Positions 9,506-52,996 of a stretch of DNA of 64,000 bases are shown here, one piece after another. The DNA is from Eledone cirrhosa (lineage: Eukaryota). The stretch lies in NCBI GenBank assembly GCA_964016885.1, contig OZ024741.1:276706001-276770000 (forward strand). Direction: 5' to 3'. Position 1 is the first letter of the stretch; every line of letters begins with the position of its first letter. The notes beneath the pieces were generated by a model. It had not been told where the DNA came from. It searched no databases and saw nothing but the letters and a program-made list of their open reading frames with translations. The position numbers and the translations under genes are program-made.

Positions 9506-10975
<1,470 letters not shown>

Positions 10976-11040
10976 CTACCTACGTCTTTGTCTACATGTA
11001 TGTCACGCTCAATAATGAATCTTACTTTTTTTGTGTTTTG

Positions 11041-11331: not shown

Positions 11332-11506
11332 GAGGATAGTAGACGTGTGTCATATCGCTCTGTGATTTGGATTTTTACCTGCTAATTTTGTGAGTGGATT
11401 TTTTTGAATTATTTTGTATAATTAACTGTAACCCCTAGTCTGGGACTCTAGACGTCGGGTAAATATATTTTCACCCCTTTTGGGGTGAAAAATAAATATT
11501 TGAGAA

Positions 11507-13267
11507 ATGTTCATCGATATCGTTGATAACGATATCGTCGAAAACGATATCGCCATATTGGAAGCGAACGCCACGCCGACCAAAAAAACAAGCGGGAAAG
11601 AGGGAACAACAGTTCAAACTGTTGAACAACCCCTCCTCTCCAATGAAAAAAAGAATTTCAATTCAAATGAAAAAATTAATTTTCAAGAAAAAAATAACAC
11701 CACAAATAAGGAAACCAACAACATTACAACAACAAACAAAGACAAAATTTCTTTTGCCCAAACACTCAAGAGAGCCACGGAGTACAAAGCCATTGACATC
11801 ACGAACGCCAAGGAAAATTTGCTAGAGGCTAGAAAATACGTATCTTTTGGGGAGGATGGTTCTTTTACGATCAACTCCCCAGAAGAAGTGCGTGAACAGA
11901 TTTACAAGAATACCGTAAGCTTCAGAACCATAACCAACGAAACGAGAAAGCCAGCGCAATTGACCGAAAGTCAAATCGAGCTGGTTCTGAAAGAAATTAA
12001 AAATGACATACTCTTTATTCAAAGAGGAAAGCTGTATGCCAGCATTATGGTCCGAATGAAGGACGAAATGCTGGCTCAGAAATATTCGGTGGCACCTATA
12101 GTGTCACCACAATACACCTTCTTCCCCACATATAAAGGAAGAAGAACACAAAGGATAAGAATGTGGAGCCCTACGCCAGAAATTAACATCTGGTCCGTCC
12201 TAACAGGATTTACCGACCTAGATAAGGACATACTAATTTCAGCAGGGGAGTCCACCAGTGGACTGTTCGGGGGGAAAAGTCTGGAGGTTCTCTTACAGAT
12301 GACACCTGAGAGAATCTCCGGAATACCCGACCGAGTGCTACTGGATGGGCGAACCTACATAAATATCACAGTGGAAGGCAGGAGACCCTCATGTTACCAC
12401 TGCGCTGGCAGAGGTCACCTGAGGACGGCCTGCCCTCTACTAACAACTAAAAAACCACTGCTACAAACACCACAACAACAACAAAAACAACCAGCACCAC
12501 CATCACAAAAACAACAAAATACACTACCATCTCCACCAGAACAACAAAAACCAACAACACCACCACCACCACCACAACAACAACAACAACAACATCAACA
12601 ACAGCTCAAGAAAACAACCCAAAACACGGTCCCACCCAGCCCCACCCCACAGAACACAAATACAAAAACAGTTCATACACAACCCGGAGATATACCCCTC
12701 CCCTCCAATACGGAAGAGGAGCTCATATCGTCGGAAGACGAGGGGGCTCCCTTCCAAAAAGTGAAAAGAAAAAAACGTACACACACCACAACAACAAAAA
12801 TAACCCCACCTGACAACACAACACAGACAATAAAACGCAAACTCACTCAACAACAACAAGCAAAAACAAACACAACAACACAAAAACTCTACACATACAT
12901 AAACAAAAACAATGAAAACCTAACTTTAAAAATAGAAACCAACCCTTCGATACAAACCGAAGGGCCGAATTTCGTAACGGCATTGGGGCTCCCTAACCTG
13001 AAAATGGTGAAAATCCCACTTGACATTTTTAAAACTTTAAAAGACATGTACCCTGAGGACGTGGGCCCACCCTGCACCAGGCCACTCAACCGCGTCCTCC
13101 TGAAAGGTTTTCCCCTCCCCTCCTCAAACACCCACACAACTCCAAAGATCCCAACCCCTCCACACACCAATACCCCCACACCACCACAAACCACCACCCC
13201 ACCCATCAACCCCGCCACCAGCCCCATGGAAACTGAGCGACCCGAACCCCGGGACGCAGAGAGGTAA
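11507..13267 (+). CDS. ORF1p of A1 (586 aa), gag-like nucleic-acid-binding protein
   Basis: CCHC zinc knuckle CYHCAGRGHLRTAC, Q/P/T-rich linker, conserved C-terminal block; lies upstream of ORF2. Confidence 0.9.
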   Translation: MFIDIVDNDIVENDIAILEANATPTKKTSGKEGTTVQTVEQPLLSNEKKNFNSNEKINFQEKNNTTNKETNNITTTNKDKISFAQTLKRATEYKAIDITNAKENLLEARKYVSFGEDGSFTINSPEEVREQIYKNTVSFRTITNETRKPAQLTESQIELVLKEIKNDILFIQRGKLYASIMVRMKDEMLAQKYSVAPIVSPQYTFFPTYKGRRTQRIRMWSPTPEINIWSVLTGFTDLDKDILISAGESTSGLFGGKSLEVLLQMTPERISGIPDRVLLDGRTYINITVEGRRPSCYHCAGRGHLRTACPLLTTKKPLLQTPQQQQKQPAPPSQKQQNTLPSPPEQQKPTTPPPPPQQQQQQHQQQLKKTTQNTVPPSPTPQNTNTKTVHTQPGDIPLPSNTEEELISSEDEGAPFQKVKRKKRTHTTTTKITPPDNTTQTIKRKLTQQQQAKTNTTTQKLYTYINKNNENLTLKIETNPSIQTEGPNFVTALGLPNLKMVKIPLDIFKTLKDMYPEDVGPPCTRPLNRVLLKGFPLPSSNTHTTPKIPTPPHTNTPTPPQTTTPPINPATSPMETERPEPRDAER

Positions 13268-13269
13268 GT
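13264..13269 (+). promoter_or_regulatory. Consensus 5' splice donor AG|GTAAGT overlapping the ORF1 stop codon
   Basis: GTAAGT also at 18949, 24746, 29755, 38802 and 46208; ATAAGT in decayed copy C (33669). Confidence 0.6.
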
Positions 13270-13290
13270 GCCTCTTTCTTTGCCACCAAC

Positions 13291-16200
13291 ATGGCTGTCT
13301 TAAGAGTGGGTTGTCTAAATGCGCGTGGCCTGGGCTCACCTTGGAAGCAAGCTAAACTTCTAAGTGACCTCAGGTCACAATGTGTAAATGTGATGGTTAT
13401 TTGCGAGGCCCGGATCAGCAGCATGCGACAGCTAACCCCCACCTTTGATGACTTTGAGATGCACGCATCTCTCTGTCAGCCCGGAGGTGGGGGTGGGGTT
13501 GTCGTTCTGCTGCAAAAACATCTGGGTCTCGCTACACAGACGGTACACTTGGACCCGGAGGGTCGACTCGTGGTTCTGGACCTTGGCAATGGCGAAGGCG
13601 AAGCTTTTAGGCTTGTCGCCGTATACGCCCCTTTTGGGGCAATGCGGTCGGACTTCTTCCATCGTCTGGAGACTTTTCTAGGGACGTCCCGCTCCTTGCT
13701 TTTAGTGGGGGACTGGAATGGTATCCTAGATGCACGTTGGGACTATGTAGGGGCATGTCCCGATAGAGGGGGGTGTAACAGCCTTAAGGGGTTAATCGGC
13801 CGATTCGACCTGGCCGATAGATACCGACTAGATTTTCCGACTGTACCAACCTGGACCTGGTCAAATAACAGTGGTCAATCTAGATCGTACCTAGATAGGT
13901 TCTTAGTTAGAATTAAGGATAGGGACTTTTTAAGTTGTCCAGAAATGCTCATGGTGGGCTATTCAGACCACAAGTTAGTGACCTGCGTAGTCCACCTTGA
14001 TAGAACGCATAGGCAGGGGCCCGGTTACTGGAAGCTCAACTTGTCCTTACCGGCAAGTAGAGCTTACAGGGACCGGATTAGAACCTTAGTTAAGGAGCAG
14101 TTGACGGGCGCCATCGTCAACAACAGGTGGTGGGGCTCTCTAAAAAGAGAGATTAGAGTAGTTTCAATAGGAGTTAGTAAGGAGTTAGCCTCAGATAGAA
14201 ATAGGAAGGAAAGGGAGTTGGTAGTTAATGTTGAAGAGGCAATGAGAAGCGGCAACGTGGCCAGAGTGCAAGCGTCGAGAACGGTCTTGAACCAGTTCTT
14301 CGACGCGAAACACGAAGGCTGCGTTGTCCGAAGCAAAATACGTGCTCTGGGAAACGAGGGGACCAAAGCTGTTAGCTGGGCTAGCGTGACAGAAGCGAAA
14401 AGTGGGATTAAATCCACTATCCGGTCTTTGCGAGACCAGGATGGACGGCTGATCCTTGAACCTAAGCAAATGTGCGAGGCCTTTCAAAGGCACTTTGCCG
14501 AATTGTTCGGGAGGGGCGGGGAGCCGGTTGGAGATGTGGATTTCGGTCCATACCTCGACGGCCTGCCGCGTCTTTCGGACAGGGAGGCGAGGTCCTGCGA
14601 CGGGCCGATCTCAGCGGCTGAAATAGGGGACGTGCTGAGCCTATGCGGCAAACGCAAATCTCCAGGACTCGATGGTCTGCCCTACGAACTATATATTAAT
14701 ATGCCGGACTTGTTCCCCGATCTCCTCGAGGCGGTCTACTGCAACTGGCAACAGAACGGGAGAATTCCCTGTTCTGTGACCAAGGGCGTAGTCTCGCTAG
14801 TGAGGAAGGACGAGAACAAGGGGGATGACATTAGTAATTTTAGGCCCATAACTCTGCTAAATGCAGAGTTAAAGATTTTGGCGAAGGTGTTAGCGAAGAG
14901 GTTGGCGCTTGTCGTGGGGGGCCTGGTGGGAGATGCGCAGACATGCGCTATCCCGTCCAGGTCCATCCACGACAACCTCCACCTCATGCGATACATCATA
15001 GGGAGGGTTGGGAACGAACCCGGCTTTGGTGGGGCCCTGATAAATTTAGATCAGTCTAAAGCGTTCGATAGGGTGGACCATGGTTACCTGGATGCGGTGC
15101 TAGCGGCGGCTGGGTTCGGACCCGTTTTCAGGGGCTGGATCACTGCCATGCACAGCAGCCGCATCTGCTCTAGAGTCAAGGTGAACGGCTACCTTTCGGA
15201 GCCGTTCGAAATCACCCGCTCCATCCGACAGGGGTGCCCTCTCTCCTCCCTTCTGTATGTGTTGACTCTCGAGCCATTACTGCGGAAGTTGGAGTTGTTG
15301 CAGGGCATCCCTTTGGAACCGGGATTGCGCAAAGCGGTGTCGGCCTACGCCGATGACGTAACAGTAATGGTGTCGACCGCCTCGGAAATCGAGGCAATCG
15401 GCACCTTACTAGAGGAGTACGAAAGGTTGACAGGGGCTAAGCTGAACCGGGACAAGTCAGTCGCTTTGCAACTCGGCGAGTGGAGGGGCAAAGCGATGTC
15501 GTGCGACGGTATCGTCGGACGGTGGACGGAGGGCCCGGTGAAGTTGCTTGGGGTCTGGTTCGGACCGGACCTCCAGGTGGAGAAAAACTGGGGTGAGGTG
15601 ACGAATAGGGTGTTTGCACTGACCCAGAAGTGGGCCGAGTGCAAACTATCCCTAAAAGGTCGGGCGGAGGTGGCGAACGCTTACATAGCGTCCGTCATCT
15701 ATTACCGCTTGACTGTCGTGCCTTGCCCGGGTGAGATCCTCGCCAAAATGGAGCGCGCCCTCTTTTATTTCCTTTGGAAGAAGAGGTCTCCTCTAGTGAG
15801 GAGATCCATCTGCTGTCAACACCCTTTGAAAGGAGGGCTGGGGATGCCGTGGCTAAAAATGCGTAAACACGCATTGAGGCTAAGGCACCTCCACGTATTC
15901 CTCACCGGTCAACCGGTGTGGGCCCCGTTTGTGAGGCGAGCCTTCCCGAGGCTCGTCTCGCTCACCGAGCTGCAGTCCTGGGTGAAGCAAAGACCGAGAA
16001 AACTGGGCGACTGGCACACCGAGTGTGCCCAGGCGCTCACGGCTCTCTGGCAGGCGGACCCGGCTATCGACGGAGACTCCACCTCGTCATTCTATAGAGG
16101 GCTGGTGGTTAGCGGGTGCGACGACGCCCTCGGAGAAGCCCTAGGCATGGAGGAGGACGAACTGGCCAGTCTATTCGGTAGGACTTTCGGCCCGGGACCT

Positions 16201-16728
16201 ATGGACAACTTCCAGAAGTCCTTGGCCTGGCAGTGCTACCGAGGGGCTCTGCCCGTTCGGGATAAGCTCTACAGACACGGGCGCCCGGGTAGGGACCCCT
16301 CGAAAAAGATCTGTCCCAGATGCGTGCGCGACGAGGAAACCGTCGCGCACGCATTGGTGCACTGCCCGGGCATTGCCGATCTGTGGGGCTATGTCGAACG
16401 ACTGCTGTCACGGGTGGGACCAATTAGGTTGACCACCGAGTCCATTGTAACGATCAAGCCGCCTCCCCCCTTCAAAAATGAAGGAGAGGCGGTCTTCCTC
16501 TGTGTAATAGTCATGGTAAAAGAGGCTATATGGTGGACGCGTCTGAAAGGGCTGAGGTCGGACACCTTTCTCTCCGGCCAACAACTGGTCCTTTTCTTCC
16601 GATACCATTTCGGAAGAAGGATCAGGATGGAGAGAGAGGTGCTCCACTCCAGCCAGTTTTATGAAAGGTGGGTGAAAGTTGCGAGAATGGCCCGTGTGAA
16701 TGGGCCTTCTCTCTACCTCAGCCTGTAG
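13291..16728 (+). CDS. ORF2p of A1 (1145 aa): APE endonuclease + reverse transcriptase + C-terminal CCHC-type motif
   Basis: APE motifs LNARGL, VYAP, GDWN, TW, YLDRF, SDH. RT motifs KSPGLDG, FRPITLLN, LDQSKAFDRV, RQGCPLS, YADD. C-terminal CPRC..ETVAHALVHC. GYWKLN and GGLG motifs are typical of L1/Tx1. Confidence 0.95.
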   Translation: MAVLRVGCLNARGLGSPWKQAKLLSDLRSQCVNVMVICEARISSMRQLTPTFDDFEMHASLCQPGGGGGVVVLLQKHLGLATQTVHLDPEGRLVVLDLGNGEGEAFRLVAVYAPFGAMRSDFFHRLETFLGTSRSLLLVGDWNGILDARWDYVGACPDRGGCNSLKGLIGRFDLADRYRLDFPTVPTWTWSNNSGQSRSYLDRFLVRIKDRDFLSCPEMLMVGYSDHKLVTCVVHLDRTHRQGPGYWKLNLSLPASRAYRDRIRTLVKEQLTGAIVNNRWWGSLKREIRVVSIGVSKELASDRNRKERELVVNVEEAMRSGNVARVQASRTVLNQFFDAKHEGCVVRSKIRALGNEGTKAVSWASVTEAKSGIKSTIRSLRDQDGRLILEPKQMCEAFQRHFAELFGRGGEPVGDVDFGPYLDGLPRLSDREARSCDGPISAAEIGDVLSLCGKRKSPGLDGLPYELYINMPDLFPDLLEAVYCNWQQNGRIPCSVTKGVVSLVRKDENKGDDISNFRPITLLNAELKILAKVLAKRLALVVGGLVGDAQTCAIPSRSIHDNLHLMRYIIGRVGNEPGFGGALINLDQSKAFDRVDHGYLDAVLAAAGFGPVFRGWITAMHSSRICSRVKVNGYLSEPFEITRSIRQGCPLSSLLYVLTLEPLLRKLELLQGIPLEPGLRKAVSAYADDVTVMVSTASEIEAIGTLLEEYERLTGAKLNRDKSVALQLGEWRGKAMSCDGIVGRWTEGPVKLLGVWFGPDLQVEKNWGEVTNRVFALTQKWAECKLSLKGRAEVANAYIASVIYYRLTVVPCPGEILAKMERALFYFLWKKRSPLVRRSICCQHPLKGGLGMPWLKMRKHALRLRHLHVFLTGQPVWAPFVRRAFPRLVSLTELQSWVKQRPRKLGDWHTECAQALTALWQADPAIDGDSTSSFYRGLVVSGCDDALGEALGMEEDELASLFGRTFGPGPMDNFQKSLAWQCYRGALPVRDKLYRHGRPGRDPSKKICPRCVRDEETVAHALVHCPGIADLWGYVERLLSRVGPIRLTTESIVTIKPPPPFKNEGEAVFLCVIVMVKEAIWWTRLKGLRSDTFLSGQQLVLFFRYHFGRRIRMEREVLHSSQFYERWVKVARMARVNGPSLYLSL

Positions 16729-16729
16729 G
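16705..16729 (+). promoter_or_regulatory. Candidate 3' splice acceptor at the end of ORF2 (ccttctctctacctcAG|cctgtAG|g)
   Basis: Pyrimidine tract plus two AGs; equivalent sequence at the ORF2 end of all copies except D, where it is deleted. Confidence 0.5.
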
Positions 16730-16978
16730 TGGAACAGAAAGGAGGGAGCACCCTCTCTTTGTGCTCCCGTGGAGAAGGGTCGCACACTTTTTTCGGGGGT
16801 GTGTGTGACCCCAAAACGATCCCTCCCTATTGAGGACCTTCTTGTTATTATTTTGTTTGTTATATTTTTCTTACTCGATTTTTATGTAAACTCCCCCCAC
16901 CCATGTACATGTCCCTTTCTTTTGTGCCCTAGTGGCAAATAAACAGAAATTTATCTGTCTGCCTATCTGTCCGTCTGA

Positions 16979-17008
<30 letters not shown>

Positions 17009-17009
<1 letters not shown>

Positions 17010-20000
17010 AGTATAGTAGACGTGTGTCATATCGCTCTGTGATTTGGATTTTTACCTGCTATTTTTGTGAGTGGATTTTTTTGAATTCTTTTGTATAATT
17101 AACTGTAACCCCTAGTCTGGGACTCTAGACGTCGGGTAAATATATTTTCACCCCTTTTGGGGTGAAAAATAAATATTTCAGAAATGTTTATCGATATCGT
17201 TGATAACGATATCGTCGAAAACGATATCGCCATATTGGAAGCGAACGCCACGCCGACCAAAAAAACAAGCGGGAAAGAGGGAACAACAGTTCAAACTGTT
17301 GAACAACCCCTCCTCTCCAATGAAAAAAAGAATTTCAATTCAAATGAAAAAATTAATTTTCAAGAAAAAAATAACACCACAAATAAGGAAACCAACAACA
17401 TTACAACAACAAACAAAGACAAAATTTCTTTTGCCCAAACACTCAGGAGAGCCACGGAATACAAAGCCATTGACATCACGAACGCCAAGGAAAATTTGCT
17501 AGAGGCTAGAAAATACGTATCTTTTGGGGAGGATGGTTCTTTTACGATCAACTCCCCAGAAGAAGTACGTCAACAGATTTACAAGAATACCGTAAGCTAC
17601 AGAACCATAACCAACGAAACGAGAAAGCCAGCGCAATTGACCGAAAGTCAAATCGAGCTGGTTCTTAAAGAAATTAAAAATGACATACTCTTTATTCAAA
17701 GAGGAAAGCTGTATGCCAGCATTATGGTCCGAATGAAGGACGAAATGCTGGCTCAGAAATATTCGGTGGCACCTATAGTGTCACCACAATACACCTTCTT
17801 CCCCACATATAAAGGAAGAAGAACACAAAGGATAAGAATGTGGAGCCCTACGCCAGAAATTAACATCTGGTCCGTCCTAACAGGATTTACCGATCTAGAT
17901 AAGGACATACTAATTTCAGCAGGGGAGTCCACCAGTGGACTGTTCGGCGGGAAAAGTCTGGAGGTTCTCTTACAGATGACACCTGAGAGAATCTCCGGAA
18001 TACCCGACCGAGTGCTACTGGATGGGCGAACCTACATAAATATCACAGTGGAAGGCAGGAGACCCTCATGTTACCACTGCGCTGGCAGAGGTCACCTGAG
18101 GACGGCCTGCCCTCTACTAACAACTAAAAAACCACTGCTACAAACACCACAACAACAACAAAAACAACCAGCACCACCATCACAAAAACAACAAAATACA
18201 CTACCATCTCCACCAGAACAACAAAAACCAACAACACCACCACCACCACCACCACCACAACAACAACAACAACAACAACATCAACAACAGCTCAAGAAAA
18301 CAACCCAAAACACGGTCCCACCCAGCCCCACCCACAGAACACAAATACAAAAACAGTTCATACACAACCCGGAGATATACCCCTCCCCTCCAATACGGAA
18401 GAGGAGCTCATATCGTCGGAAGACGAGGGGGCTCCCTTCCAAAAAGTGAAAAGAAAAAAACGTACACACACCACAACAACAAAAATAACCCCACCTGACA
18501 ACATAACACAGACAATAAAACGCAAACTCACTCAACAACAGCAAGCAAAAACAAACACAACAACACAAAAACTCTACACATACATAAACAAAAACAATGA
18601 AAACCTAACTTTAAAAATAGAAACCAACCCTTCGATACAAACCGAAGGGCCGAATTTCGTAACGGCAATGGGGCTCCCTAACCTGAAAATGGTGAAAATC
18701 CCACTTGACATTTTCAAAACTTTAAAAGACATGTACCCTGAGGACGTGGGCCCACCCTGCACCAGGCCACTCAACCGCGTCCTCCTGAAATGTTTTCCCC
18801 TCCCCTCCTCAAACACCCACACAACTCCAAAGATCCCAACCCCTCCACACACTAATACCCCCACACCACCACAAACCACCACCCCACCCATCAACCCCGC
18901 CACCAGCCCCATGGAAACTGAGCGACCCGAACCCCGGGACGCAGAGAGGTAAGTGCCTCTTTCTTTGCCACCAACATGGCTGTCTTAAGAGTAGGTTGTC
19001 TAAATGCGCGTGGCCTGGGCTCACCTTGGAAGCAAGCTAAACTTCTAAGTGACCTCAGGTCACAATGTGTAAATGTGATGGTTATTTGCGAGGCCCGGAT
19101 CAGCAGCATGCGACAGCTAACCCCCACCTTTGATGACTTTGAGATGCACGCATCTCTCTGTCAGCCTGGAGGTGGGGGTGGGGTTGTCGTTCTGCTGCAA
19201 AAACATCTGGGTCTCGCTACACAGACGGTACACTTGGACCCGGAGGGTCGACTCGTGGTTCTGGACCTTGGCAATGGCGAAGGCGAAGCTTTTAGGCTTG
19301 TCGCCGTATACGCCCCTTTTGGGGCAATGCGGTCGGACTTCTTCCATCGTCTGGAGACTTTTCTAGGGACGTCCCGCTCCTTGCTTTTAGTGGGGGACTG
19401 GAATGGTATCCTAGATGCACGTTGGGACTATGTAGGGGCATGTCCCGATAGAGGGGGGTGTAACAGCCTTAAGGGGTTAATCGGCCGATTCGACCTGGCC
19501 GATAGATACCGACTAGATTTTCCGACTGTACCAACCTGGACCTGGTCAAATAACAGTGGTCAATCTAGATCGTACCTAGATAGGTTCTTAGTTAGAATTA
19601 AGGATAGGGACATTTTAAGTTGTCCAGAAATGCTCATGGTGGGCTATTCAGACCACAAGTTAGTGACCTGCGTAGTCCACCTTGATAGAACGCATAGGCA
19701 GGGGCCCGGTTACTGGAAGCTCAACTTGTCCTTACCGGCAAGTAGAGCTTACAGGGACCGGATTAGAACCTTAGTTAAGGAGCAGTTGACGGGCGCCATC
19801 GTCAACAACAGGTGGTGGGGCTCTCTAAAAAGAGAGATTAGAGTAGTTTCAATAGGAGTTAGTAAGGAGTTAGCCTCAGATAGAAATAGGAAGGAAAGGG
19901 AGTTGGTAGTTAATGTTGAAGAGGCAATGAGAAGCGACAACGTGGCCAGAGTGCAAGCGTCGAGAACGGTCTTGAACCAGTTCTTCGACGCGAAACACGA

Positions 20001-22637: not shown

Positions 22638-22775
22638 GTCTGCCTATCTGTCTGCCTATCTGTCCGTCTGACTGTCTGTCTGCCTATCTGTCTGACTGTC
22701 TGTCTGCCTATCTGTCCGTCTGACTGTTTGTCTGACTGTTTGTCTGCCTATCTGTCTGCCTATCTGTCCGTCTGA

Positions 22776-22805
<30 letters not shown>

Positions 22806-22806
<1 letters not shown>

Positions 22807-28433: not shown

Positions 28434-28442
28434 GTCTATCTA

Positions 28443-33434: not shown

Positions 33435-33468
<34 letters not shown>

Positions 33469-33473
33469 GTATG

Positions 33474-33535
<62 letters not shown>

Positions 33536-33573
33536 ACTACTGTCTAGCTATCTAGCTATATATCTATCTATCT
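33435..33573 (+). repeat. (TATC)n spacer between copies B and C
   Basis: Directly visible. Confidence 0.95.
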
Positions 33574-36500: not shown

Positions 36501-37383
36501 ACGTTACAAGGGCGACGACGTGCTCGGAGAGACTCTGGGCATCGAAGACGATGAGCTCACCAGTCTGTTTGGTAGGACTTTCCGCCTGGGACCTATGGAC
36601 AACTTCCAGAGGTCCCTGGCCTGGCAGTGCTACCGAGGAGTGCTACCGAGGAGTGCTACCGAGGAGCTCTACCGGTTCGTGACAAGATCTACAGGCACCG
36701 ACGCCCGGCAGGGATTCTTCCAAGAGGACGTGTCTAAGATGCGCGCAGGACATTGAAACCGTCCTGCACGCAATTGTACACTGCCCGGGCGTAACCGACC
36801 TGTGGAATTATGCAGAACAACTGCTGTCGCGTATGGGACAAATCCAGTTGACTGCTGAGTCCATAGTAAACATCAAACCGCCAGCCTCTTTCAAAAACGA
36901 AAGAGAGGCGATTTTCCTCTGTACAGTGGCTATGGTGAAAGAAGTTATATGGTGGACGAGATTGAGAGGACTGAGGACAGATGCCTTTCTCTCCGGACAA
37001 CAATTGATTCCCTTCTTTAAGTATCACTTTAGAAGGAGAATCAGAGTGGAGAGAGAGGCACTGCACTCCAGTAAATTTACTGAAAGGTGGGTGAATGTGG
37101 CAAAAATGGCTCGAGTGATTGGGCCTTCTCTGTTTATAAGCCTGTAGGTTAAAGAAGAGAGCAAAAAGAAGAAAGGAGTACTTGCACAGCACGCTCCTGG
37201 AGTTGAGGGTTGTTCTATCGACGGGGTATTAAACAACCCAGTTGTGGCGCTTCCCCCCTATTGGGGATTTCGATTGTTCTAATTGTTGGTTTTTATATTT
37301 TTTTTACACGACTGTATGTAAAATCCCCGGCATGTCTTTGTATTGTCCCCTTTTCTTGTGCGCCCTTGTGGCAAATAAAGAAA
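33574..37383 (+). mobile_element. Tx1-like copy C, truncated near the ORF1 end, decayed
   Basis: Begins NRVLLKCFP. ORF2 remnant 33714-37147; 13-bp unit gtgctaccgagga triplicated at ~36627-36666. Ends GGCAAATAAAGAAA, then TATC. Confidence 0.9.
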
Positions 37384-37467
37384 TCTATCTATCTATCTAT
37401 CTGTAAGTTAATAAAGAAACATATCTGTAAGTTATCTGTATCTATCTATCTATCTATCTATCTATAT

Positions 37468-40400: not shown

Positions 40401-42390
40401 AAGGCTGGCGCTTGTCGTCGTGAACCTGGTAGGCGAAGCCCAAACGTGTGCAATCCCGACCAGGTCCATACACGACAACCTCCACCTCATGCGATACATC
40501 ATAGAGAGGGTAGGGTGTAAACCTGGCTTCGGTGGGGCTCTGATCAATTTAGATCAGTCTAAGGCATTTGATAGGGTCGACCATCAATACTTGGAAGCAG
40601 TTCTCAAGGCGGCCGGCTTCGGTCCAGTCTTCAGAGGCTGGATAGCTGCCATGCACACCAGCATCTGCTCGGCACTCAAGGTGAATAGCTACCTATCAGA
40701 GCCATTCCAAATCATGCGTTCCATCCGTCAGGGATGCCCTCTCTCCTTCATTCTGTATGTACTGACTCTCGAGCCGTTACTGCAGAAGTTGGAGCTGTTG
40801 CAGGGTATCCCGATCGAACAAGGACTGCGGAAAGCAGCGTCGGCCTATGCCGACGACATAACCGTAATGGTGTCGAAAACCTCGGAAATCAGGATAATTG
40901 GCAACCTAATACAGGAATACGAAACGTTGACTGGAGCAAAACTAAACCCAAACAAGTCTGTCGGTTTGCAACTCGGCACATGGAGAGGCAAACCCATGCC
41001 TTCCGACAGTGTCGTTGGACGCTGGACGGAAGGACCGGTGAAATTGCTCTGGGTCTGGTTCTGTCCAGACTTCCAGGTGGACAAGAACTGGAACGAGGTC
41101 ACGGTGAAAGTATTTGCACTCACCCAGAAGTGGGCTGAGTGCAAACTCTCCTTGAAAGGTCGAGCGGAGGTGGCGAACACTTTTATAGCGTACGTCATCT
41201 ACTACCGCTTGACAGTCGTGCCTTGCCCCCGCGAATACCTTACCAAAATGGAACGCCTACTCTCCAAGTTCCTCTGGAAGAAACAGGCTCCATTGGTGAG
41301 GAGATACATCTGCTGTCAACACCCTTATAACGGAGGGCTGGGCATGCCGTGACTGATGATACGCAAACATGCGCTGAGGCTACACCATCTCCAGGTATTC
41401 CTGATCGGTGAACCGGTGTGGCTGTCGTTTGTGAGACAAGCTCTTCCACAACTCGTCTCACTAACAGAGCTGCAGTCCTGGGTCAAGCGAAGACCGAAAA
41501 TGGGTGCCTGGCACCTCGAGTGCCAACAGGCGCTCACACCCCTCTACCAATAGGTGATTAGTGGAAGATAAGTGCGACGACGTTCTCGGGGAAACTCTAG
41601 GCATCGAGGAGGACGAACTGACCAGTCTGTTCGGGAGGACTTTCCGTCCAGGGCCTATGGATAACTTCCAGAGGTCTCTGGCCTGGCAGTGCTGCCGAGG
41701 AGCTCTACCAGTTCGAGACAAAATCTACAGGCACGGATGCCCTAGCAGAGATCCTGCCAAAAGGATCTGTCCAAGATGCGAGCAGGACATCGAAACCGTT
41801 CTGCACACAATTGTTCAGTGCCCAGGGGTGACCGTCCTGTCGAATTGTGTCGAACAGCTGCTGTCACGTGTGGGACGCATCCAGTTGTCAGCCGAGTCCA
41901 TCGTGAGGATCACCCCGCCACCTTCATTTAAGAACGGCTTTCCTGTCTGGTGGCTATGGCGAAAGAGGTAATATGGTGGACGAGATTAAAAGGACTGAGG
42001 AAAACACCTTTCTCTCCGGACAACAACTTATCCCCTTCTTTAAGTACCACTTCAGAAGGAAGGTGAGAGTGGAGAAAGAGGTGCTACACCCCAGTAAATT
42101 CGCTGAAAGGTGGGTGAATGTGGCGAAAATGTAGGTTGAGGAAGATAAACAGAGGGAAGACAGGAACACCTACAAAACGTGTTCCTGGTGTTGAGGGTTG
42201 TTCTATCCACGGGGTGTAAAACAACCCTGCAGTAACGTTCCCTCCTACTGGCGATTTCAATTGTTATTTTATTATATATAGTTTATTGTTATTTATTAAT
42301 GTTAAAGTTATTTTTATGTAAAACCCCCACCGTTATGTCTTGTAATGTCCCATTTTTGTACGCCCCTGTGGCAAATAAAGAAAGATAACT
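37468..42390 (+). mobile_element. Tx1-like copy D, 5'-truncated in ORF1, decayed
   Basis: ORF1 remnant with CHKCGKTTHLKAFC to 38805; ORF2 remnant 38846-42134; ends GGCAAATAAAGAAAG, then TATC. Confidence 0.9.
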
Positions 42391-42407
42391 ATCTATCTAT
42401 CTATCTG

Positions 42408-42474
42408 CCTCACGTTTTTATTGTATGTAAACTTCCTCCTTTGTATTTGCCCCTTCTTTTGTGCCCCTGTGGCT
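42408..42474 (+). mobile_element. 3'-UTR-only stub (B/F subfamily), duplicated at 44003-44068
   Basis: cacgtttttattgtatgtaaacttcc...gtgcccctgtggcta matches the B/F 3' UTR and lacks AATAAA. Confidence 0.85.
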
Positions 42475-42494
42475 ATCTGCCTATCTGTATGTCT

Positions 42495-43852
42495 CCAGTT
42501 GCAAACTATCCCTGAAAGGTCGGGCGGAGGTGGCGAACACCTACATAGCGTCCGTCATCTACTACCGCCTGACCGTAGTGCCCTGCCCAAGGGAAACCCT
42601 CACCAAGATGGAGCGCGCGCTCTTCCAATTCCTTTGGAAGAGGCGGGCTCCTATGGTGAGGAGATCCATCTGCTGTCAACACCCTTCGAAAGGAGGGCTG
42701 GGGATGCCGTGGCTAATGATGCGTAAACACGCATTAAGGCTACGGCACCTCTACGTATTCCTCACCGGACAACCGGTGTGGGCCTCGTTTGTGAGACGAA
42801 CCTTTCCCAGACTCGTCTCACTCACCGAGCTGCAATCCTGGGTCAAGCAAAGACCGAGAAAACTGGGCGCCTGGCACACTGAGTGTGCCCAGGCGCTCAC
42901 CGCCCTCTGGCAGGCGGATCCGGTTATCAGTGGAGACTCCACCGCAACATTCTATAGAGGGCTGGTACGCAGCAGGTGCGACGACGCCCTCGGAGAAGCC
43001 CTAGACATGGAGGAGGACGAACTGGCCGGCCTGTTCGGTAGGACATTCATCCCGGGACCTATGGATAACTTCCAGAAGTCCCTGGCCTGGCAGTGCTACC
43101 GAGGAGCTTTACCCGTTCGAGAAAGGCTCTACAGACACGGGCGCCCGGGTAGGGACCCCGCCAAAAAGATCTGTCCCAGATGCGTGTGCGACGAGGAGAC
43201 CGTTGCACACGCATTGGTACACTGCTCGGGCGTAGCCGATCTGTGGGGCTATGTCGAACAACTGCTGTCAAGGGTGGGACCGATCCGGTTGACCACCGAG
43301 TCTATTGTAATGATCAAGCCGCCTCCCCCCTTCAAAGATGAAGCAGAGGCGGTGTTTCTGTGCGTAATAGCCATGGCGAAAGAGGTTGTATGGTGGACGC
43401 GTCTGAAAGGACTGAGGTCAGGCACCTTTCTCTCTGGCCAACAACTGGTCCGTTTCTTCCGATATCATTTCGGAAGAAGGATCAGGATGGAGAGAGAGGT
43501 GCTGCACCCCAGTCGTTTTTATGAAAGATGGGTGAAAGTGGCGAGAATGGCCCGTGTGAATGGGCCTTCACTCTACATCAGACTATAGGTGAGGAAGATG
43601 AAAGACCAAGGGAGCACCCCTTCTCTGTGCTCCTGAGGAGAAGGGTTGCACACTTTTTTCGGGGGTGTGTGCGACCCCCCAAGGCGCCTCCTCTCTATTG
43701 AGGACTTTGTTATAAATTTTATTTTTTGTTATATTTTATTTTATTTTTATAGATTGTTATTGCCTCCTCCTTGTTGAGGACGCCTTGTTTTGTAAACTCC
43801 CCCCATTGTACTTGTCCCACTTTTGATGCCCTAGTGGCAAATAAAAGAAACA
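42495..43852 (+). mobile_element. Tx1-like copy E, 5'-truncated, same subfamily as G; ORF2 C-terminus open to 43588
   Basis: Protein SCKLSLKGRAEV...SLYIRL* is almost identical to G. Confidence 0.9.
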
Positions 43853-43859
43853 TATCTAT

Positions 43860-43988
43860 CTATTGGGGAAAATCGACTAATTTTTTAAATTGCATTTGTG
43901 ATAACATTTTACACGTTTTTATTGTATGTAAACTTCTACCTTTGTATTTGTCCCCTTCTTCTGTGGCCCTGTGGCTAATAAAGAAACA
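43860..43988 (+). mobile_element. 3'-UTR-only stub (B/F subfamily)
   Basis: ctattggggaaaatcgact...gtggctaataaagaaaca between TATC units. Confidence 0.85.
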
Positions 43989-44066
43989 TATCTATCTATC
44001 TGCCTCACGTTTTTATTGTATGTAAACTTCCCCTTTGTATTTGCCCCTTCTTTTGTGCCCCTGTGG

Positions 44067-44143
<77 letters not shown>

Positions 44144-45851
44144 GTACTGACTCTCGAGCCACTACTGCGGAAGCTGGAGCTATTGCAGGGCATCCCTCTG
44201 GAATCGGGACTGCGGAAAGCGGCGTCGGCCTACGCCGACGACGTGACAGTAATGGTGTCGAGCGCCTCGCAAATCGAGAAAGTCGGCACCTTACTAAAGG
44301 AATACGAAAGTCTCACAGGAGCGAAGCTGAACCGGGACAAGTCCATCGGTTTGCAACTCGGATCGTGGAGAGGCAGACCGATGCCTTCCGATGGCGTCGT
44401 CGGACGCTGGACGGAAGGACCGGTAAAGCTGCTCGGGGTCTGGTTTGGTCCGGACCTCCAGGTGGAGAAGAACTGGAACGAAGTGACGGCCAAGGTGTTT
44501 GCACTCACCCAGAAGTGGGCCGAGTGCAAACTATCCTTGAAAGGTCGAGCGGAGGTGGCGAACACTTTTATAGCGTCCGCCATCTACTACCGCTTGACCG
44601 TCGTGCCTTGTCCAGCCAAAACGCTCGCCAAAATGGAGCGCGCCCTCTTCCGATTCCTTTGGAAGAGGCGGGCTCCTTTGGTAAGAAGATCCATCTGCTG
44701 CCAACACCCTTCTAACGGAGGGCTGGGGATGCCGTGGTTGACGATGCGCAAACACGCGCTCAGGCTGCGGCATCTCTACGTATTCCTCACCGGACAACCG
44801 GTGTGGGCCCCGTTCGTGAGGCGAGCCTTCCCACGACTCGTCTCACTGACCGAGCTGCAGTCCTGGGTCAAGCAGAGACCGAGGAAAATGGGCGACTGGA
44901 ACATCGAATGTGCTCAGGCGCTCACAGCCCTCTGGCAGGCGGACCCGGCGATCAGTGGAGACTCCACTTCGTCATTCTATAGAGGGTTGGTCCGCAGCAA
45001 GTGCGACGACGCGCTCGGTGAAACTCTAGGCGTGGAGGAAGATGAACTGGCCAGTCTGTTCGGTAGGACCTTCCGCCCGGGACCGATGGACAACTTCCAA
45101 AAGTCCCTGGCCTGGCAGTGCTACCGAGGAGCTCTACCAGTTCGAGACAAGCTCTACAGACATGGGCGCCCGGGCAGGGACCCTGCAAAAAAGATCTGTC
45201 CGAGGTGCGTGCGAGACGAAGAAACCGTCGCGCACGCATTCATACACTGCCCGGGCGTCACTGACCTGTGGGGATATGTAGAACGACTATTGTCGCGGGT
45301 GGGACCAATCCAGTTGACCACCGAGTCCATTGTCATGATCAAACCGCCACCCTCCTTCAAAAACGAAGGAGAGGCGGTTTTCCTTTGTGTGATAGCTATG
45401 GCGAAAGAGGTTGTATGGTGGACAAGGTTGAAAGGGCTGAGGTCAGACACCTTTCTCTCCGGCCAACAACTGATTCTTTTTTTCAAATACCACTTTGGAA
45501 GAAGAATCAGGATGGAGAGAGAGGTGCTGTACCCCAGCAAGTTTTATGAAAGGTGGGTGCAAGTGGCGAGAATGGCCCGAGTGAATGGGCCTTCTCTCTA
45601 TATCAGCCTGTAGATTGAGGAAAAGGAGGAGGAGAGGAAAGGAGTACAAGCTCTTCGTACTCCTAGAGATGAGGGTTGCACATTTTTTCGGGGGTATGTG
45701 TTACCCATATAAACTGTCTCTCTCTATTGGGGAAAATCGACTAACTTTTAAATTCCATCTGTGATAACATTTTACACGTTTTTATTGTATGTAAACTTCC
45801 CCCTTTGTATTTGTCCCCTTCTTTTGTGCCCCTGTGGCTAATAAAGAAATA
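44144..45851 (+). mobile_element. Tx1-like copy F, 5'-truncated in RT, ORF open to 45613; B subfamily
   Basis: Begins VLTLEPLL directly after (TATC)n at 44068-44143; 3' UTR like B; followed by (TATC)n. Confidence 0.9.
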
Positions 45852-45893
<42 letters not shown>

Positions 45894-48800
45894 ATAAAAA
45901 CACAAGGGCCTAACTTCACCCAGGCAGGGGATTTCCCCCACCTCAAAATGATTAAGGCCCCACAGGACACCTATAAAACTTTAAAAAACAATTTTAAAGA
46001 GGACGTGGGTCCCCCCTGCGTCGGGCCCATTAACCGCGTCCTCCTAAAAAACTATCCCACCCCCTCCCCAAACACCCTCACAACTCCAAGCTCCCCAACC
46101 ACACAACACACTGATGCCCCCACACTTCCACAAACCACCACCCCACCCAACAACCCATCCCCCACCCTAATGGAAATTGTGCAGCCCGATACCCGGGACG
46201 CAGAGAGGTAAGTGCCTTTTCTCTTCACCACCAACATGGCTATGCTAAGAGTAGGCTGTTTAAATGCGCGTGGCCTGGGCTCAACTTGGAAGCAAGCAAT
46301 GCTTCTAAATGACCTCAGGTCACAACGTATAGATGTGATGGTTATTTGCGAGGCCCGGATCAGCAACGTGCGACAGCTGGCCCCCACCTTTGATGACTTT
46401 GAGATGCACGCATCTCTCTGTCAGCCCGGAGGTGGGGGTGGAGTTGTCGTTCTGCTGCAAAAACATCTGGGTCTCGCAACACAGATGGTACATTTGGACC
46501 CGGAGGGTCGACTAGTGGTTCTGGACCTTGGCAGTGGTAAAGGCGGAGCGTTTAGGTTGGTAGCCGCCTACGGCCCTTTCGGGTCAATGCGGCCGGACTT
46601 CTTCCATCGTCTGGAGACTTTTCTAGGGACGTCCCGCTCCTTGCTATTAGTGGGGGACTGGAATGGTATCCTAGATGCACGCTGGGACTACGTAGGGGCC
46701 TGCCCCGATAGAGAGGGGTGTAATAGCCTCAAAGGGTTAATCGGTCGATTTGACCTGGCCGATAGATATCGACTAGATTTTCCGACTGCGCCAACCTGGA
46801 CTTGGGCAAATCGTAGCGGATCATCTAGGTCGTACCTAGATAGGTTCTTAGTTAGAATTAAGGATAAGGACTTTTTAAGTTGTCCAAAAATGCGCATTGT
46901 TGGCTATTCAGACCACAAATTAGTGACCTGCATGGTCAACCTTGACAGAACTCATAGACAGGGCCCCGGTTACTGGAAGCTCAACTTGTCCTTGCCGGCA
47001 AGTAGAGCCTACAGGAATCGGATTAGTACGTTAGTTAAGGAACGGTTGACTGGAGCGATCGTCAACAGCAGGTGGTGGGTATCTCTAAAGAGAGAGATTA
47101 GAGTAGTCTCGATAGAATTTAGTAAGGTTCTAGCTGCGGATAGGAATAGGAAGGAAAGGGAGCTAATAGATAGAGTAGAAGAGGCAATTAGAAGCGGCGA
47201 CGTGGCCAGAGTGCTAGCGTCGAGAACGGCTTTGAGCCAGTTTTTCGACGCGAAGCACGAAGGCTGCGTTGTCCGAAGTAAAATACGTGCTCTAGGGAAC
47301 GAGGGGACCAAAGCTGTTAGCTGGGCCCGCGTGACAGAGGCCAACAGTGGAACTAAATCCACCATCCGGTCTTTGCGAGACCTGGATGGACGGGCGATTC
47401 TTGAGCCTAAGCAGATGTGTGAGGCCTTTCAAAGGCACTTTGCCCGACTGTTCGGGAGGGGCGGGGAGCCGGTTGGGAACGTGGACTTCGGTCCATACCT
47501 CGACGGCCTGCCGCGCCTCTCGGACAGGGAGGCGAAGTCCTGCGAAGAGCCGATTTCGGCCGCTGAGATAGAGGACGTGCTGAGCCAATGCGGCAAACGC
47601 AAATCCCCGGGTCTCGATGGTCTTCCTTACGAATTATATCTAGCTATGCCGGACTTGTTCCCCGATCTCCTCGAGGCGGTCTACTGCAACTGGCAACAGA
47701 ACGGGAGAATTCCCTGTACTGTGACCAAGGGCGTAGTCACGCTAGTGAGGAAGGACGAGAACAAGGGGGACGAAATAAGTAACTTCAGGCCCATAACACT
47801 GCTAAATACAGAGTTACAGATTTTGGCCAAGGTGCTAGCAAAGAGGTTGGCGCTTGTCGTGGGCAACCTGGTGGGAGATGCGCAGACATGCGCTATCCCG
47901 TCCAGGTCCATCCATGACAACCTCCACCTCATGCGATACATCATAGAGAGGGTTGGGAACGAACCCGGCTTTGGTGGGGCTCTGATCAACTTGGATCAAT
48001 CTAAGGCGTTCGATAGGGTCGACCATGGTTACCTGGATGCGGTGCTAGCGGCGGCAGGCTTCGGACCCGTTTTCAGGGGCTGGATCACTGCTATGCACAG
48101 CAGCCGCATCTGCTCTAGGGTCAAGGTGAACGGCTACCTCTCGGAGCCGTTCAAAATCGCGCGGTCCATCCGACAAGGGTGCCCTCTCTCCTCCCTTCTG
48201 TATGTGTTGACTCTCGAGCCACTACTGCGGAAGTTGGAGTTGTTGCAGGGCATCCCTTTGGAACCGGGATTGCGGAAAGCGGTGTCGGCCTACGCCGATG
48301 ACGTGACAGTAATGGTGTCGACGGCCTCCGAAATCGAGGCGGTCGGCACCTTACTGGAGGAGTACGAAAAGTTCACAGGGGCTAAGCTGAACCGGGACAA
48401 GTCGATCGGTTTGCAACTCGGCACGTGGAGGGGCAGACCGATGCCCTCCGATAGCGTCGTCGGACGCTGGACGGAGGGCCCGGTGAAGTTGCTCGGGGTC
48501 TGGTTCGGACCGGACCTCCAGGTGGAGAAAAACTGGGCGGAGGTTACGAACAGGGTGTTTGCACTGACCCAGAAGTGGGCCAGTTGCAAACTATCCCTGA
48601 AAGGCCGGGCGGAGGTGGCGAACACCTACATAGCGTCCGTCATCTACTACCGCCTGACCGTAGTGCCCTGCCCAAGGGAAACCCTCACCAAGATGGAGCG
48701 CGCGCTCTTCCAATTCCTTTGGAAGAGGCGGGCTCCTATGGTGAGGAGATCCATCTGCTGTCAACACCCTTCGAAAGGAGGGCTGGGGATGCCGTGGCTA

Positions 48801-49937
48801 ATGATGCGTAAACACGCATTAAGGCTACGGCACCTCTACGTATTCCTCACCGGACAACCGGTGTGGGCCTCGTTTGTGAGACGAACCTTTCCCAGACTCG
48901 TCTCACTCACCGAGCTGCAATCCTGGGTCAAGCAAAGACCGAGAAAACTGGGCGCCTGGCACACTGAGTGTGCCCAGGCGCTCACCGCCCTCTGGCAGGC
49001 GGATCCGGTTATCAGTGGAGACTCCACCGCAACATTCTATAGAGGGCTGGTACGCAGCAGGTGCGACGACGCCCTCGGAGAAGCCCTAGACATGGAGGAG
49101 GACGAACTGGCCAGCCTGTTCGGTAGGACATTCAGCCCGGGACCTATGGACAACTTCCAGAAGTCCCTGGCCTGGCAGTGCTACCGAGGGGCTTTACCCG
49201 TTCGAGAAAGGCTCTACAGACACGGGCGCCCGGGTAGGGACCCCGCCAAAAAGATCTGTCCCAGATGCGTGTGCGACGAGGAAACCGTTGCACACGCATT
49301 AGTACACTGCTCGGGCGTAGCCGATCTGTGGGGCTATGTCGAACAACTGCTGTCAAGGGTGGGACCGATCCGGTTGACCACCGAGTCTATTGTAATGATC
49401 AAGCCGCCTCCCCCCTTCAAAGATGAAGCAGAGGCGGTGTTTCTGTGCGTAATAGCCATGGCGAAAGAGGTTGTATGGTGGACGCGTCTGAAAGGACTGA
49501 GGTCGGGCACCTTTCTCTCTGGCCAACAACTGGTCCGTTTCTTCCGATATCATTTCGGAAGAAGGATCAGGATGGAGAGAGAGGTGCTGCACCCCAGCCG
49601 TTTCTATGAAAGATGGGTGAAAGTGGCGAGAATGGCCCGTGTGAATGGGCCTTCACTCTACATCAGACTATAGGTGAGGAAGATGAAAGACCAAGGGAGC
49701 ACCCCTTCTCTGTGCTCCTGAGGAGAAGGGTTGCACACTTTTTTCGGGGGTGTGTGCGACCCCCCAAGGCGCCTCCTCTCTATTGAGGATTTTGTTAAAA
49801 ATTTTATTTTTTGTTATATCTTATTTTATTTTTATATTTTGTTATTGCCTCCTCCTTATTGAGGACGCCTTTTTGTGTAAACTCCCCCCTTTGTACTTGT
49901 CCCACTTTTGATGCCCTAGTGGCAAATAAAAGAAATA
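45894..49937 (+). mobile_element. Tx1-like copy G, truncated in the ORF1 C-terminus, ORF2 intact
   Basis: ORF1 tail IKTQGPNF...RDAER* (46211); flanked by (TATC)n on both sides. Confidence 0.92.
46236..49673 (+). CDS. ORF2p of copy G (1145 aa from the ATG at 46236): APE + RT + CCHC-type motif
   Basis: Uninterrupted, collinear with and the same length as A1 ORF2; ccaacATGG start context. Confidence 0.92.
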   Translation: MAMLRVGCLNARGLGSTWKQAMLLNDLRSQRIDVMVICEARISNVRQLAPTFDDFEMHASLCQPGGGGGVVVLLQKHLGLATQMVHLDPEGRLVVLDLGSGKGGAFRLVAAYGPFGSMRPDFFHRLETFLGTSRSLLLVGDWNGILDARWDYVGACPDREGCNSLKGLIGRFDLADRYRLDFPTAPTWTWANRSGSSRSYLDRFLVRIKDKDFLSCPKMRIVGYSDHKLVTCMVNLDRTHRQGPGYWKLNLSLPASRAYRNRISTLVKERLTGAIVNSRWWVSLKREIRVVSIEFSKVLAADRNRKERELIDRVEEAIRSGDVARVLASRTALSQFFDAKHEGCVVRSKIRALGNEGTKAVSWARVTEANSGTKSTIRSLRDLDGRAILEPKQMCEAFQRHFARLFGRGGEPVGNVDFGPYLDGLPRLSDREAKSCEEPISAAEIEDVLSQCGKRKSPGLDGLPYELYLAMPDLFPDLLEAVYCNWQQNGRIPCTVTKGVVTLVRKDENKGDEISNFRPITLLNTELQILAKVLAKRLALVVGNLVGDAQTCAIPSRSIHDNLHLMRYIIERVGNEPGFGGALINLDQSKAFDRVDHGYLDAVLAAAGFGPVFRGWITAMHSSRICSRVKVNGYLSEPFKIARSIRQGCPLSSLLYVLTLEPLLRKLELLQGIPLEPGLRKAVSAYADDVTVMVSTASEIEAVGTLLEEYEKFTGAKLNRDKSIGLQLGTWRGRPMPSDSVVGRWTEGPVKLLGVWFGPDLQVEKNWAEVTNRVFALTQKWASCKLSLKGRAEVANTYIASVIYYRLTVVPCPRETLTKMERALFQFLWKRRAPMVRRSICCQHPSKGGLGMPWLMMRKHALRLRHLYVFLTGQPVWASFVRRTFPRLVSLTELQSWVKQRPRKLGAWHTECAQALTALWQADPVISGDSTATFYRGLVRSRCDDALGEALDMEEDELASLFGRTFSPGPMDNFQKSLAWQCYRGALPVRERLYRHGRPGRDPAKKICPRCVCDEETVAHALVHCSGVADLWGYVEQLLSRVGPIRLTTESIVMIKPPPPFKDEAEAVFLCVIAMAKEVVWWTRLKGLRSGTFLSGQQLVRFFRYHFGRRIRMEREVLHPSRFYERWVKVARMARVNGPSLYIRL

Positions 49938-49967
49938 TATCTATCTATCTATCTATCCATCTATCTG

Positions 49968-50315
49968 TGGAAGAAGAATCAGGATGGAGAGAGAGGTGCT
50001 GTACCCCAGCAAATTTTATAAAAGGTGTGGGAATGTGTCAAAGATGGCCCGAGTGGTTGGGCCTTCTCTCTATATAAGCCTGTAGGTTGAGGAAAAAGAG
50101 GAAGAGAGGAGGGGAATACTCACTCTTGGTGCTTCTGGAGCTGATGGTTGTACATTTTTCCGGGGTGTGTACAACCCCTGTGTAACGCCTCCCCCCTATT
50201 GGGGATTTCAGTTATTTGTTATTTTTATTAATAGTTTTATTTTCATATACCTGTATGTAAACTCCCCATTTGTATTTGTCCCCTTCTTTTGTGCCCTTGT
50301 GGCTAATAAAGAAAT
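49968..50315 (+). mobile_element. Tx1-like copy H: last ~115 bp of ORF2 (stop 50085) plus 3' UTR
   Basis: GRRIRMEREVLYPSKFY homology; ends GGCTAATAAAGAAAT, then (TATC)n. Confidence 0.88.
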
Positions 50316-50316
50316 G

Positions 50317-50373
<57 letters not shown>

Positions 50374-50375
50374 GT

Positions 50376-50429
<54 letters not shown>

Positions 50430-52930: not shown

Positions 52931-52990
<60 letters not shown>

Positions 52991-52996
<6 letters not shown>

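Follow-up and report, generated by a model that had tools for sequence, protein, structure and literature searches.

The 64,000-nucleotide stretch of Eledone cirrhosa DNA analyzed here (hereafter the window) carries a long series of copies of a Tx1-like LINE (long interspersed element), separated by short runs of the tetranucleotides TATC and TGTC (TRTC, where R is A or G). The question raised by this locus is how so many copies, some nearly identical and others much diverged, came to share one tract in a single orientation and with none of them interrupting another. We regard it as probable that the lineage targets this microsatellite, that the TRTC target renews itself and that one tract was reused, with local multiplication of some copies in addition. 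TATC/TGTC is most likely a new repeat target for the kind of repeat-seeking LINE known from fish and crocodilians.

Layout of the array

The array occupies positions 11331-50316 and consists of ten copies bearing open reading frames (ORFs) and four stubs, every one on the + strand, as seen by tblastn and blastn searches with copy A1 and by reading of the junctions. ORF2-derived sequence was found by tblastn and blastn in copies A1, A2, A3, B, C, D, E, F, G, and H, and the junctions place the stubs at 37411, 42411, 43864, and 44006. The features along the array are the following (HSP, high-scoring segment pair; RT, reverse transcriptase; TSD, target-site duplication; UTR, untranslated region).

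11039-11330, unstranded: left host satellite S1, a mosaic of TGTC/TATC 4-mers with a 52-bp higher period
11331-16951, + strand: A1, full length, both frames open
16952-17007, unstranded: spacer S2, 56 bp, copied from the final 14 units of S1
17008-22636, + strand: A2, full length, with a 1-bp ORF1 deletion in common with A3 and a stop at ORF2 codon 699
22637-22804, unstranded: spacer S3, 168 bp, copied from the final 42 units of S1
22805-28432, + strand: A3, full length, with the ORF1 deletion in common with A2 and a 1-bp deletion near ORF2 codon 985
28442-33433, + strand: B, a decayed copy with a 5' truncation inside ORF1 (4 HSPs, 10 stops)
33574-37385, + strand: C, a decayed copy with its truncation point at the end of ORF1 (6 HSPs, 5 stops)
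37398-37434, + strand: 11-nt element tip (37411-37421, ATAAAGAAACA) flanked by two TATCTGTAAGTTA, a 13-bp TSD
37466-42385, + strand: D, truncated in ORF1, the most fragmented copy (9 HSPs, 4 stops)
42402-42482, + strand: stub st1 (42411-42473), B/F-type 3' UTR flanked by two TATCTGCCT, a 9-bp TSD
42495-43852, + strand: E, 5'-truncated in ORF2, open frame, 98.6% identical to G
43864-43988, + strand: stub st2, B/F-type 3' end, its 5' junction with TCTAT microhomology
44006-44067, + strand: stub st3, a second copy of st1 with both junctions identical
44144-45851, + strand: F, 5'-truncated in the RT, open frame, following (TATC)19
45893-49937, + strand: G, truncated in ORF1, whole ORF2 open (46236-49673)
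49968-50316, + strand: H, a 349-bp 3' fragment
50317-50655, unstranded: right host tract, (TATC)14, (TATC)13, and then a TATC/TGTC/TG mosaic

The copies belong to six subfamilies that are about 73-99.5% alike. Over the last 1350 bp, identity is 99.2-99.5% among the A copies, 98.6% between E and G, 94.5% between B and F, and 73-88% for other pairs, with C and D at 73-80% to the other copies; H is 80-86% identical to all others. Elements account for 38.3 kb and spacers for about 0.67 kb, or 1.7% of the array, the spacers being 9 bp (TGTCTATCT, after A3) to about 170 bp long. No copy is interrupted by another, given that the interior of A1 contains no TRTCTRTC octamer. When insertion is modeled as uniform over the array and its two flanking satellites, the log10 probability of no nesting after 11 events has a median of -9.8 and a best case of -5.9, the choice of window lying outside the model.

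Junctions with the repeat

The complete 3' ends read AATAAA..GAAA followed by two nucleotides and then by T(A/G)TC in phase, as found in 12 of the 14 pieces. The phase score reaches 7-8 of 8 at offset +2 and is 5 or less elsewhere, with +2 being the best offset in all 12. Counting A1-A3 once gives ten independent ends, for which the chance of a single phase is, by arithmetic, 4^-9. The pieces at 42411 and 44006 are near-identical copies of one event and end at GTGGC without the AATAAA signal. Poly(A) follows the 3' end in none of the 14 pieces. At the 5' side, 13 of the 14 ends abut TRTC-like repeat, and the remaining one, at 37411, abuts its own target duplication; the host side of these junctions is TRTCT or TGCCT in six, TRTC in four, TCTAT in two, TCTG in one, and the TSD of the tip in one. 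An earlier reading made from the letters of this DNA (the sequence-only reading) had described ten ORF-bearing copies and about four stubs of about six subfamilies, all on the + strand, a minor fraction of repeat with no copy interrupting another, 3' ends passing without poly(A) from AATAAA-GAAA into TATC or TGTC, and 5' ends starting from the repeat. The alignments, identities, and junctions agree with this description, with two bases intervening at the 3' side and a TSD in place of the repeat at one 5' end.

The TSDs TATCTGTAAGTTA (13 bp, around the tip) and TATCTGCCT (9 bp, around st1), whose lengths as written fit 4n+1 bases, carry imperfections of the local repeat. This would be impossible for a pure tail encoded by the element, indicating that the repeat after the 3' end, certainly from its second unit onward, is host target and not only tail. 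The same junctions bear on the possibility that the choice of site is guided by RNA only, by means of a TATC-tailed transcript and a loosely specific endonuclease of which only the nicks that pair with the tail are extended. The lack of poly(A) at all 14 ends suits such a process, the constant phase is what tail pairing predicts, and st1 and st3 begin internally at GTGGC followed by TA, with a two-base overlap with the repeat. Nonetheless, the TSDs hold host imperfections from the second unit on, the A ends continue into TGTC and not into TATC alone, and 10 of the 14 5' junctions lie at TRTC or TRTCT-like positions, which tail pairing leaves unexplained. We consider it quite unlikely that RNA pairing is the sole determinant.

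The TC-type tracts of the window, (TC)33, (TC)19, and (TTC)34, hold no copy. For 11 of 11 ends, a 3' hairpin of the form GCC-5nt-GGC is predicted; it shows no covariation among nine window copies, and its significance is a hint only. It reads GCC-CYWGT-GGC and precedes AATAAA (16925-16937 and other 3' ends), and st1 and st3 end at its 3' base.

Order of insertion and local copying

Copies B, C, and D have 4-10 stops each and several frame breaks, while E, F, G, and A1 have neither. The order along the array is young-old-young, with A, E, F, and G on both sides of B, C, and D, indicating that copies were added inside the tract and not at an end. A3 stands upstream of the far more decayed B, and to the left of the A block there is host satellite only, with no element 3' end upstream of S1. 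For this reason, the A insertion and the founder appear to have chosen TRTC without an upstream copy.

This order is difficult to obtain by telomere-like addition to a chromosome end (the HeT-A/TART mode) that was later made internal. A unidirectional head-to-tail layout with full-length young copies at its 5' side would be expected from such addition, but young E, F, and G lie 3' of decayed B, C, and D, TSDs are present, ordinary host DNA extends for 11 and 13 kb on the two sides, and 7 TTAGGG and 9 CCCTAA are scattered in 64 kb; we find this origin hardly credible. The array has grown by R1-like re-insertion, not by HeT-A/TART-like end addition. The likeness to HeT-A/TART drawn by the sequence-only reading is one of appearance only, given that young copies flank decayed ones, while its description of the site as interstitial is borne out by the host DNA on both sides within the window. 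It had also proposed that one locus was reused over a long time, which stands as far as repeated use of one TRTC tract is concerned but not for A1-A3 as independent insertions.

A2 and A3 are sisters, with 13 and 12 private differences, respectively, and A1 differs from both at 38 columns. All three are preceded by the same six-unit junction, which together with the copying of the end of S1 in S2 and S3 shows that the 5' junction was copied. A1-A3 may represent one insertion followed by local copying, and the st1/st3 pair is, as far as its sequence tells, a local duplicate like the A triplet. The copying may have occurred by unequal exchange, by re-insertion of a read-through RNA carrying the upstream flank, or with the satellite being the head of the family. 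The RNA route stays open, given that the 3' breakpoints of the A triplet lie exactly at the element end and in repeat phase, as insertion would give, and that simple slippage from S3 would have left S2 8 bases longer than it is. An assembly artefact was considered for A1-A3 and rejected on the basis of the 12-13 private differences in each of A2 and A3, with 33 transitions and 19 transversions. The spacer before E (42474-42494) resembles the start of the right satellite (50445-50465), with two differences in 17 bases, and may be what is left of a long duplication that F, G, and H displaced.

Local copying could be extended to the whole array if DNA-level tandem duplication were combined with harmless insertions that persist passively in a region rich in repeats and low in recombination. 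The 99.1-99.5% identity of A1-A3, their common six-unit junction, the ORF1 deletion in common to A2 and A3, and the duplicates st1 and st3 are in line with this. It does not account for the six subfamilies, whose identity falls as low as 73% and whose truncation points differ, nor for the absence of nesting (log10 probability of about -6 to -10), the single strand, and the single phase. As a general explanation it is very improbable, and for copies B-H it is already largely refuted.

Related copies outside the window

Reads from restriction-site-associated DNA (RAD) of organism A (105 reads) join a 3' end, a TATC/TGTC spacer, and a copy truncated at 15685. The spacer of this junction is absent from the window, and the joint is one of the 12 listed of 234. 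Matches to the family amount to 22,014, 152,812, 78,892, and 3,000 records in four runs, which do not represent a copy number, and read depth is far higher over the RT than at the 5' end of the element. The reads show a large and diverse family. No loose ends at element termini are present among the read rows listed, and protein scans of viral contigs found no relative.

A sister lineage at about 40% identity was found by a scan of prokaryote genomes in G001, a GTDB metagenome-assembled genome (MAG) labeled as a bacterium, to which 41 of the 48 loci belong. G001 contains 85 ORF2 matches, mostly at 41-44% identity, of which 57 are near full length and 56 of these are without stops. The near-full matches are found on 16 contigs, on one strand per contig and with a period of about 6.4-6.8 kb, and the 3' ends stop just after AATAAA. 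These 16 animal-type contigs (C3-C15 and C17-C19, with loci L002-L040, L044, and L049-L066) consist largely of intact Tx1-like LINEs in head-to-tail arrays, and they are a contamination of the MAG. Their spacers are locus-specific and about 11-18 bp long; in the most divergent array (L065, on C13) the spacer starts with TATC directly after AATAAA, one case in nine for which chance is possible. The G001 3' hairpin, located with a pattern that demands the hairpin, is GGC-CWHGT-GCC, with one pair flipped, and the endonuclease hairpin loop of the sister branch is two residues longer. Rfam and ARAGORN detected no RNA gene in the window, in six G001 loci, or in L042, and a small nuclear RNA or tRNA target is unsupported.

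Several observations weigh against TRTC targeting as the origin of the array. Except for the RAD junction, which may represent copies of one molecule or another allele of the array locus, every junction is from this one locus. In metagenome contigs the 3'-end pattern has one match, which does not belong to an element, and in viral contigs it has none. The same-strand (TATC)n tracts at 10602 (8 units) and 58408 (19 units) and the opposite-strand GACA tract at 60743 are empty, which means that a preference for TRTC alone is insufficient for the pile-up; local bias besides sequence preference is probably needed. The spacers of G001 are of nine types over the 16 contigs, none of them a microsatellite, and TATC might in principle represent just another spacer tied to its locus.

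Such observations are expected if the element re-inserts at or next to its own copies whatever the site, with TATC being the target duplication of this locus regrown by slippage. Besides the empty TATC tracts, the one-strand arrays of G001 argue for this: their spacers match the host 3' flank in three of the three arrays for which the 3' border was fetched, and they contain truncated copies, other subfamilies, and exact duplicates of one truncated copy. Still, the A block is younger than B and has no element end upstream, the nicks of the tip and st1 are in repeat phase and 12-16 bases away from the closest 3' end upstream of them, the RAD junction outside the window is also TATC/TGTC, and G001 represents a separate clade at about 40% identity. 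Moreover, much of the stacking in G001 may be plain unequal exchange, given that most units are near-identical. Since the sister lineage stacks too, stacking is lineage-wide, and it is by itself no proof of TATC specificity. Re-insertion next to existing copies regardless of sequence is, on balance, an unlikely explanation.

A wider proposal, which we hold as doubtful, is that the element homes in cis to its own locus via read-through RNA, with a GATA/GACA-specific endonuclease branch and a sister branch directed to unique sites, as a lineage-wide survival strategy. The read-through RNA, made from array members and bearing the upstream flank and a downstream repeat tail, would leave the flank duplications of 56-168 bp with their 3' breakpoints at the element end. 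Interstitial arrays from 40 kb to more than 70 kb in length, made of intact LINEs, would represent a class of satellites built by retrotransposons.

Proposed mechanism

According to the explanation that we regard as probable, repeated targeting of a self-renewing TRTC tract, an L1-group lineage of octopod-like cephalopods, very probably of the Tx1 clade, would insert into (T-R-T-C)n by target-primed reverse transcription with fixed orientation and phase. The endonuclease (APE) domain would nick the GATA/GACA strand once per unit, either at GAYA/GAYA or at the pyrimidine-purine step GAY/A, the exact bond being left undecided by a one-base overlap. The second nick would occur on the top strand at T/R, two to three units from the first, and read-through UAUC/UGUC at the end of the RNA would pair with the nicked primer and probably help to set the phase. 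Each insertion would leave repeat on both sides, slippage would regrow this repeat, and later copies would land between earlier ones and not within them, with at least 11 separate events building the array. Local multiplication of the A triplet and of the st1/st3 pair would then have followed, by unequal exchange or by re-insertion of read-through RNA bearing the upstream flank. Targeting, self-stacking, and RNA-tail pairing can act together.

Encoded proteins and identity of the element

The two reading frames of A1 are the following.

11507-13267, + strand: ORF1, 586 amino acids, with a CCHC knuckle (residues 296-309) and language-model features of the RRM/CCHC type
13291-16728, + strand: ORF2, 1145 amino acids, APE endonuclease, RT (YADD at 686), C-terminal CCHC

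The ORF1 knuckle has the pattern C-x2-C-x4-H-x4-C, with Pfam zf-CCHC E-values of 0.023-0.067 that are below the cut-off, and ORF1 matches CCHC/RRM clusters in Atlas at 0.90-0.92. An ORF1 with CCHC knuckles is typical of Tx1, unlike mammalian L1. ORF2 contains the Pfam domains Exo_endo_phos, RVT_1, and zf-RVT, with APE residues N10, E39, D141/N143, D202, and D226/H227 in A1, and the catalytic motifs are intact in A1 and G. ORF2 is more similar to L1 proteins than to those of R2 or the R1 clade. Indeed, a profile of 39 sequences gives human L1 ORF2p an E-value of 4e-195 versus 9e-64 for R2, the structure predicted for ORF2 (pLDDT 84.9) has L1 ORF2p at Foldseek ranks 1-7, and the predicted endonuclease has a TMt of 0.83 with that of L1 versus 0.78 with that of TRAS1.

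Among named proteins, one of Argonauta hians comes closest (64% over 495 amino acids), and a protein of Acanthosepion pharaonis is 51% identical in the RT, which points to an octopod-like host. The window copies and three further proteins form one clade (support 99/100), sister to a clade (95/94) that unites the cuttlefish protein with the G001 elements, in a tree where copy C fills 30% of the columns and P0272 was left out for short overlap. From sequence and structure prediction, the element is to be classified as an L1-group APE non-LTR retrotransposon. Membership of the Tx1 clade is very probable, the label being based on architecture; none of the searches yielded a named Tx1 reference for the tree.

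The sequence-only reading called the element Tx1-like and related it to APE elements; as far as an APE element of the L1 group is concerned, the domains, the profile ranking, and Foldseek agree. Its suggestion that A1 is competent is in line with the open frames and catalytic motifs but less so with the private changes R365S and E571G, at residues where R and E are kept in nine of nine other aligned proteins. Given these changes, and given that contigs of run X1 carry the A2/A3 base at three A1 sites, the activity of A1 is uncertain.

A splice-donor-like GTAAGT (13266-13271) overlaps the ORF1 stop just before ORF2. It is present in six of seven window copies (A1, A2, A3, B, D, and G, with C reading ATAAGT) and also at L008, L023, and L036 of the G001 lineage.

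Comparison with known elements

Tx1 elements in microsatellites include Kibi in (TC)n, Koshi in (TTC)n, and the crocodilian Tx1-1/5/6_Crp and relatives in (TTCC)n/(TTTC)n (PMC4494074, PMC3812793). The window element resembles them as an APE-type, two-ORF, L1-group LINE in a simple repeat with a T/C-rich sense strand. It differs in its unit, TATC/TGTC with a purine in place of TC, TTC, TTCC, or TTTC, in its cephalopod host, and in having 14 pieces from six subfamilies gathered within a single tract. Specificity has been defined by the target being found in over 20% of flanks genome-wide (PMC4494074); here, 14 of 14 pieces lie in TRTC at one locus, plus one read junction outside. Fixed-phase insertion into short repeats is also seen for Waldo in (ACAY)n and Mino in (AC)n, both of the R1 clade, Dong in (TAA)n (PMC3812793), and SART1 in (TTAGG)n (PMC7265360), with Waldo likewise using a tetranucleotide with one degenerate base. 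These elements are from other clades, and SART1 needs a poly(A) tail, which is lacking in the window. For TRAS1, SART1, and R1, the endonuclease sets the insertion site (PMC1919474).

Tandems of Drosophila R1 arise by double insertion and unequal exchange (PMC5932611), and SINEU-3 is found in tandem insertions around a TSD (PMC4494074). In common with these, the window has head-to-tail copies, spacers of duplicated target, and tail-to-internal junctions from 5' truncation; as in R1-type double insertion, the spacers are duplicated target (the 13-bp and 9-bp TSDs, and S2 and S3 copying S1). Unlike R1 tandems, the target is a regrowing microsatellite, the spacers are variable, and many diverged subfamilies share one array. 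HeT-A, TART, and TAHRE have the unidirectional head-to-tail layout (PMC5932611), whereas the window array has no age gradient or poly(A) and has TSDs, repeat spacers, and flanking host DNA.

In Octopus vulgaris, 13 recently active L1-Tx1 families with 421 insertions have been reported, of the same class as the window element and in a related host group; the available part of that report contains no target or array analysis (PMC13282606). TATC does not occur in the available part of PMC3812793, and parts of PMC4640811 and PMC8869645 provided further background. A search of the published literature, with Repbase, Dfam, and Kojima and Fujiwara 2004 outside its range, found no description of a LINE that targets GATA/GACA or of Tx1 arrays in cephalopods; it is quite possible that Repbase has an entry for a family of this kind.

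Other features of the window

Outside the array, a Penelope-like element with RT and GIY-YIG domains in two frames is found at 2553-4594. Two inverted pairs, 6-695 with 895-1550 (91% alike) and 52988-53342 with 54502-54856 (99%), are possibly foldback or terminal-inverted-repeat elements. A (GGAATGGT)95 tract lies at 56126-56892 and a GACA-rich 49-bp minisatellite at 60161-60544.

Significance

Microsatellite targeting and tandem stacking are each already known. If the targeting is true genome-wide, GATA/GACA tetranucleotides and a cephalopod host would join the target list of Tx1-type LINEs. The change of APE specificity toward microsatellite targets has been called not well understood (PMC3812793), and the TRTC branch and its 40%-identical sister would then be a natural pair for testing it. 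As a tool, the element would be a many-site and not a single-site integrase. For octopus genomes, the finding would call for caution, given that markers of the GATA type may sit at element ends, and it would help to explain the hotspots of transposable elements in these genomes.

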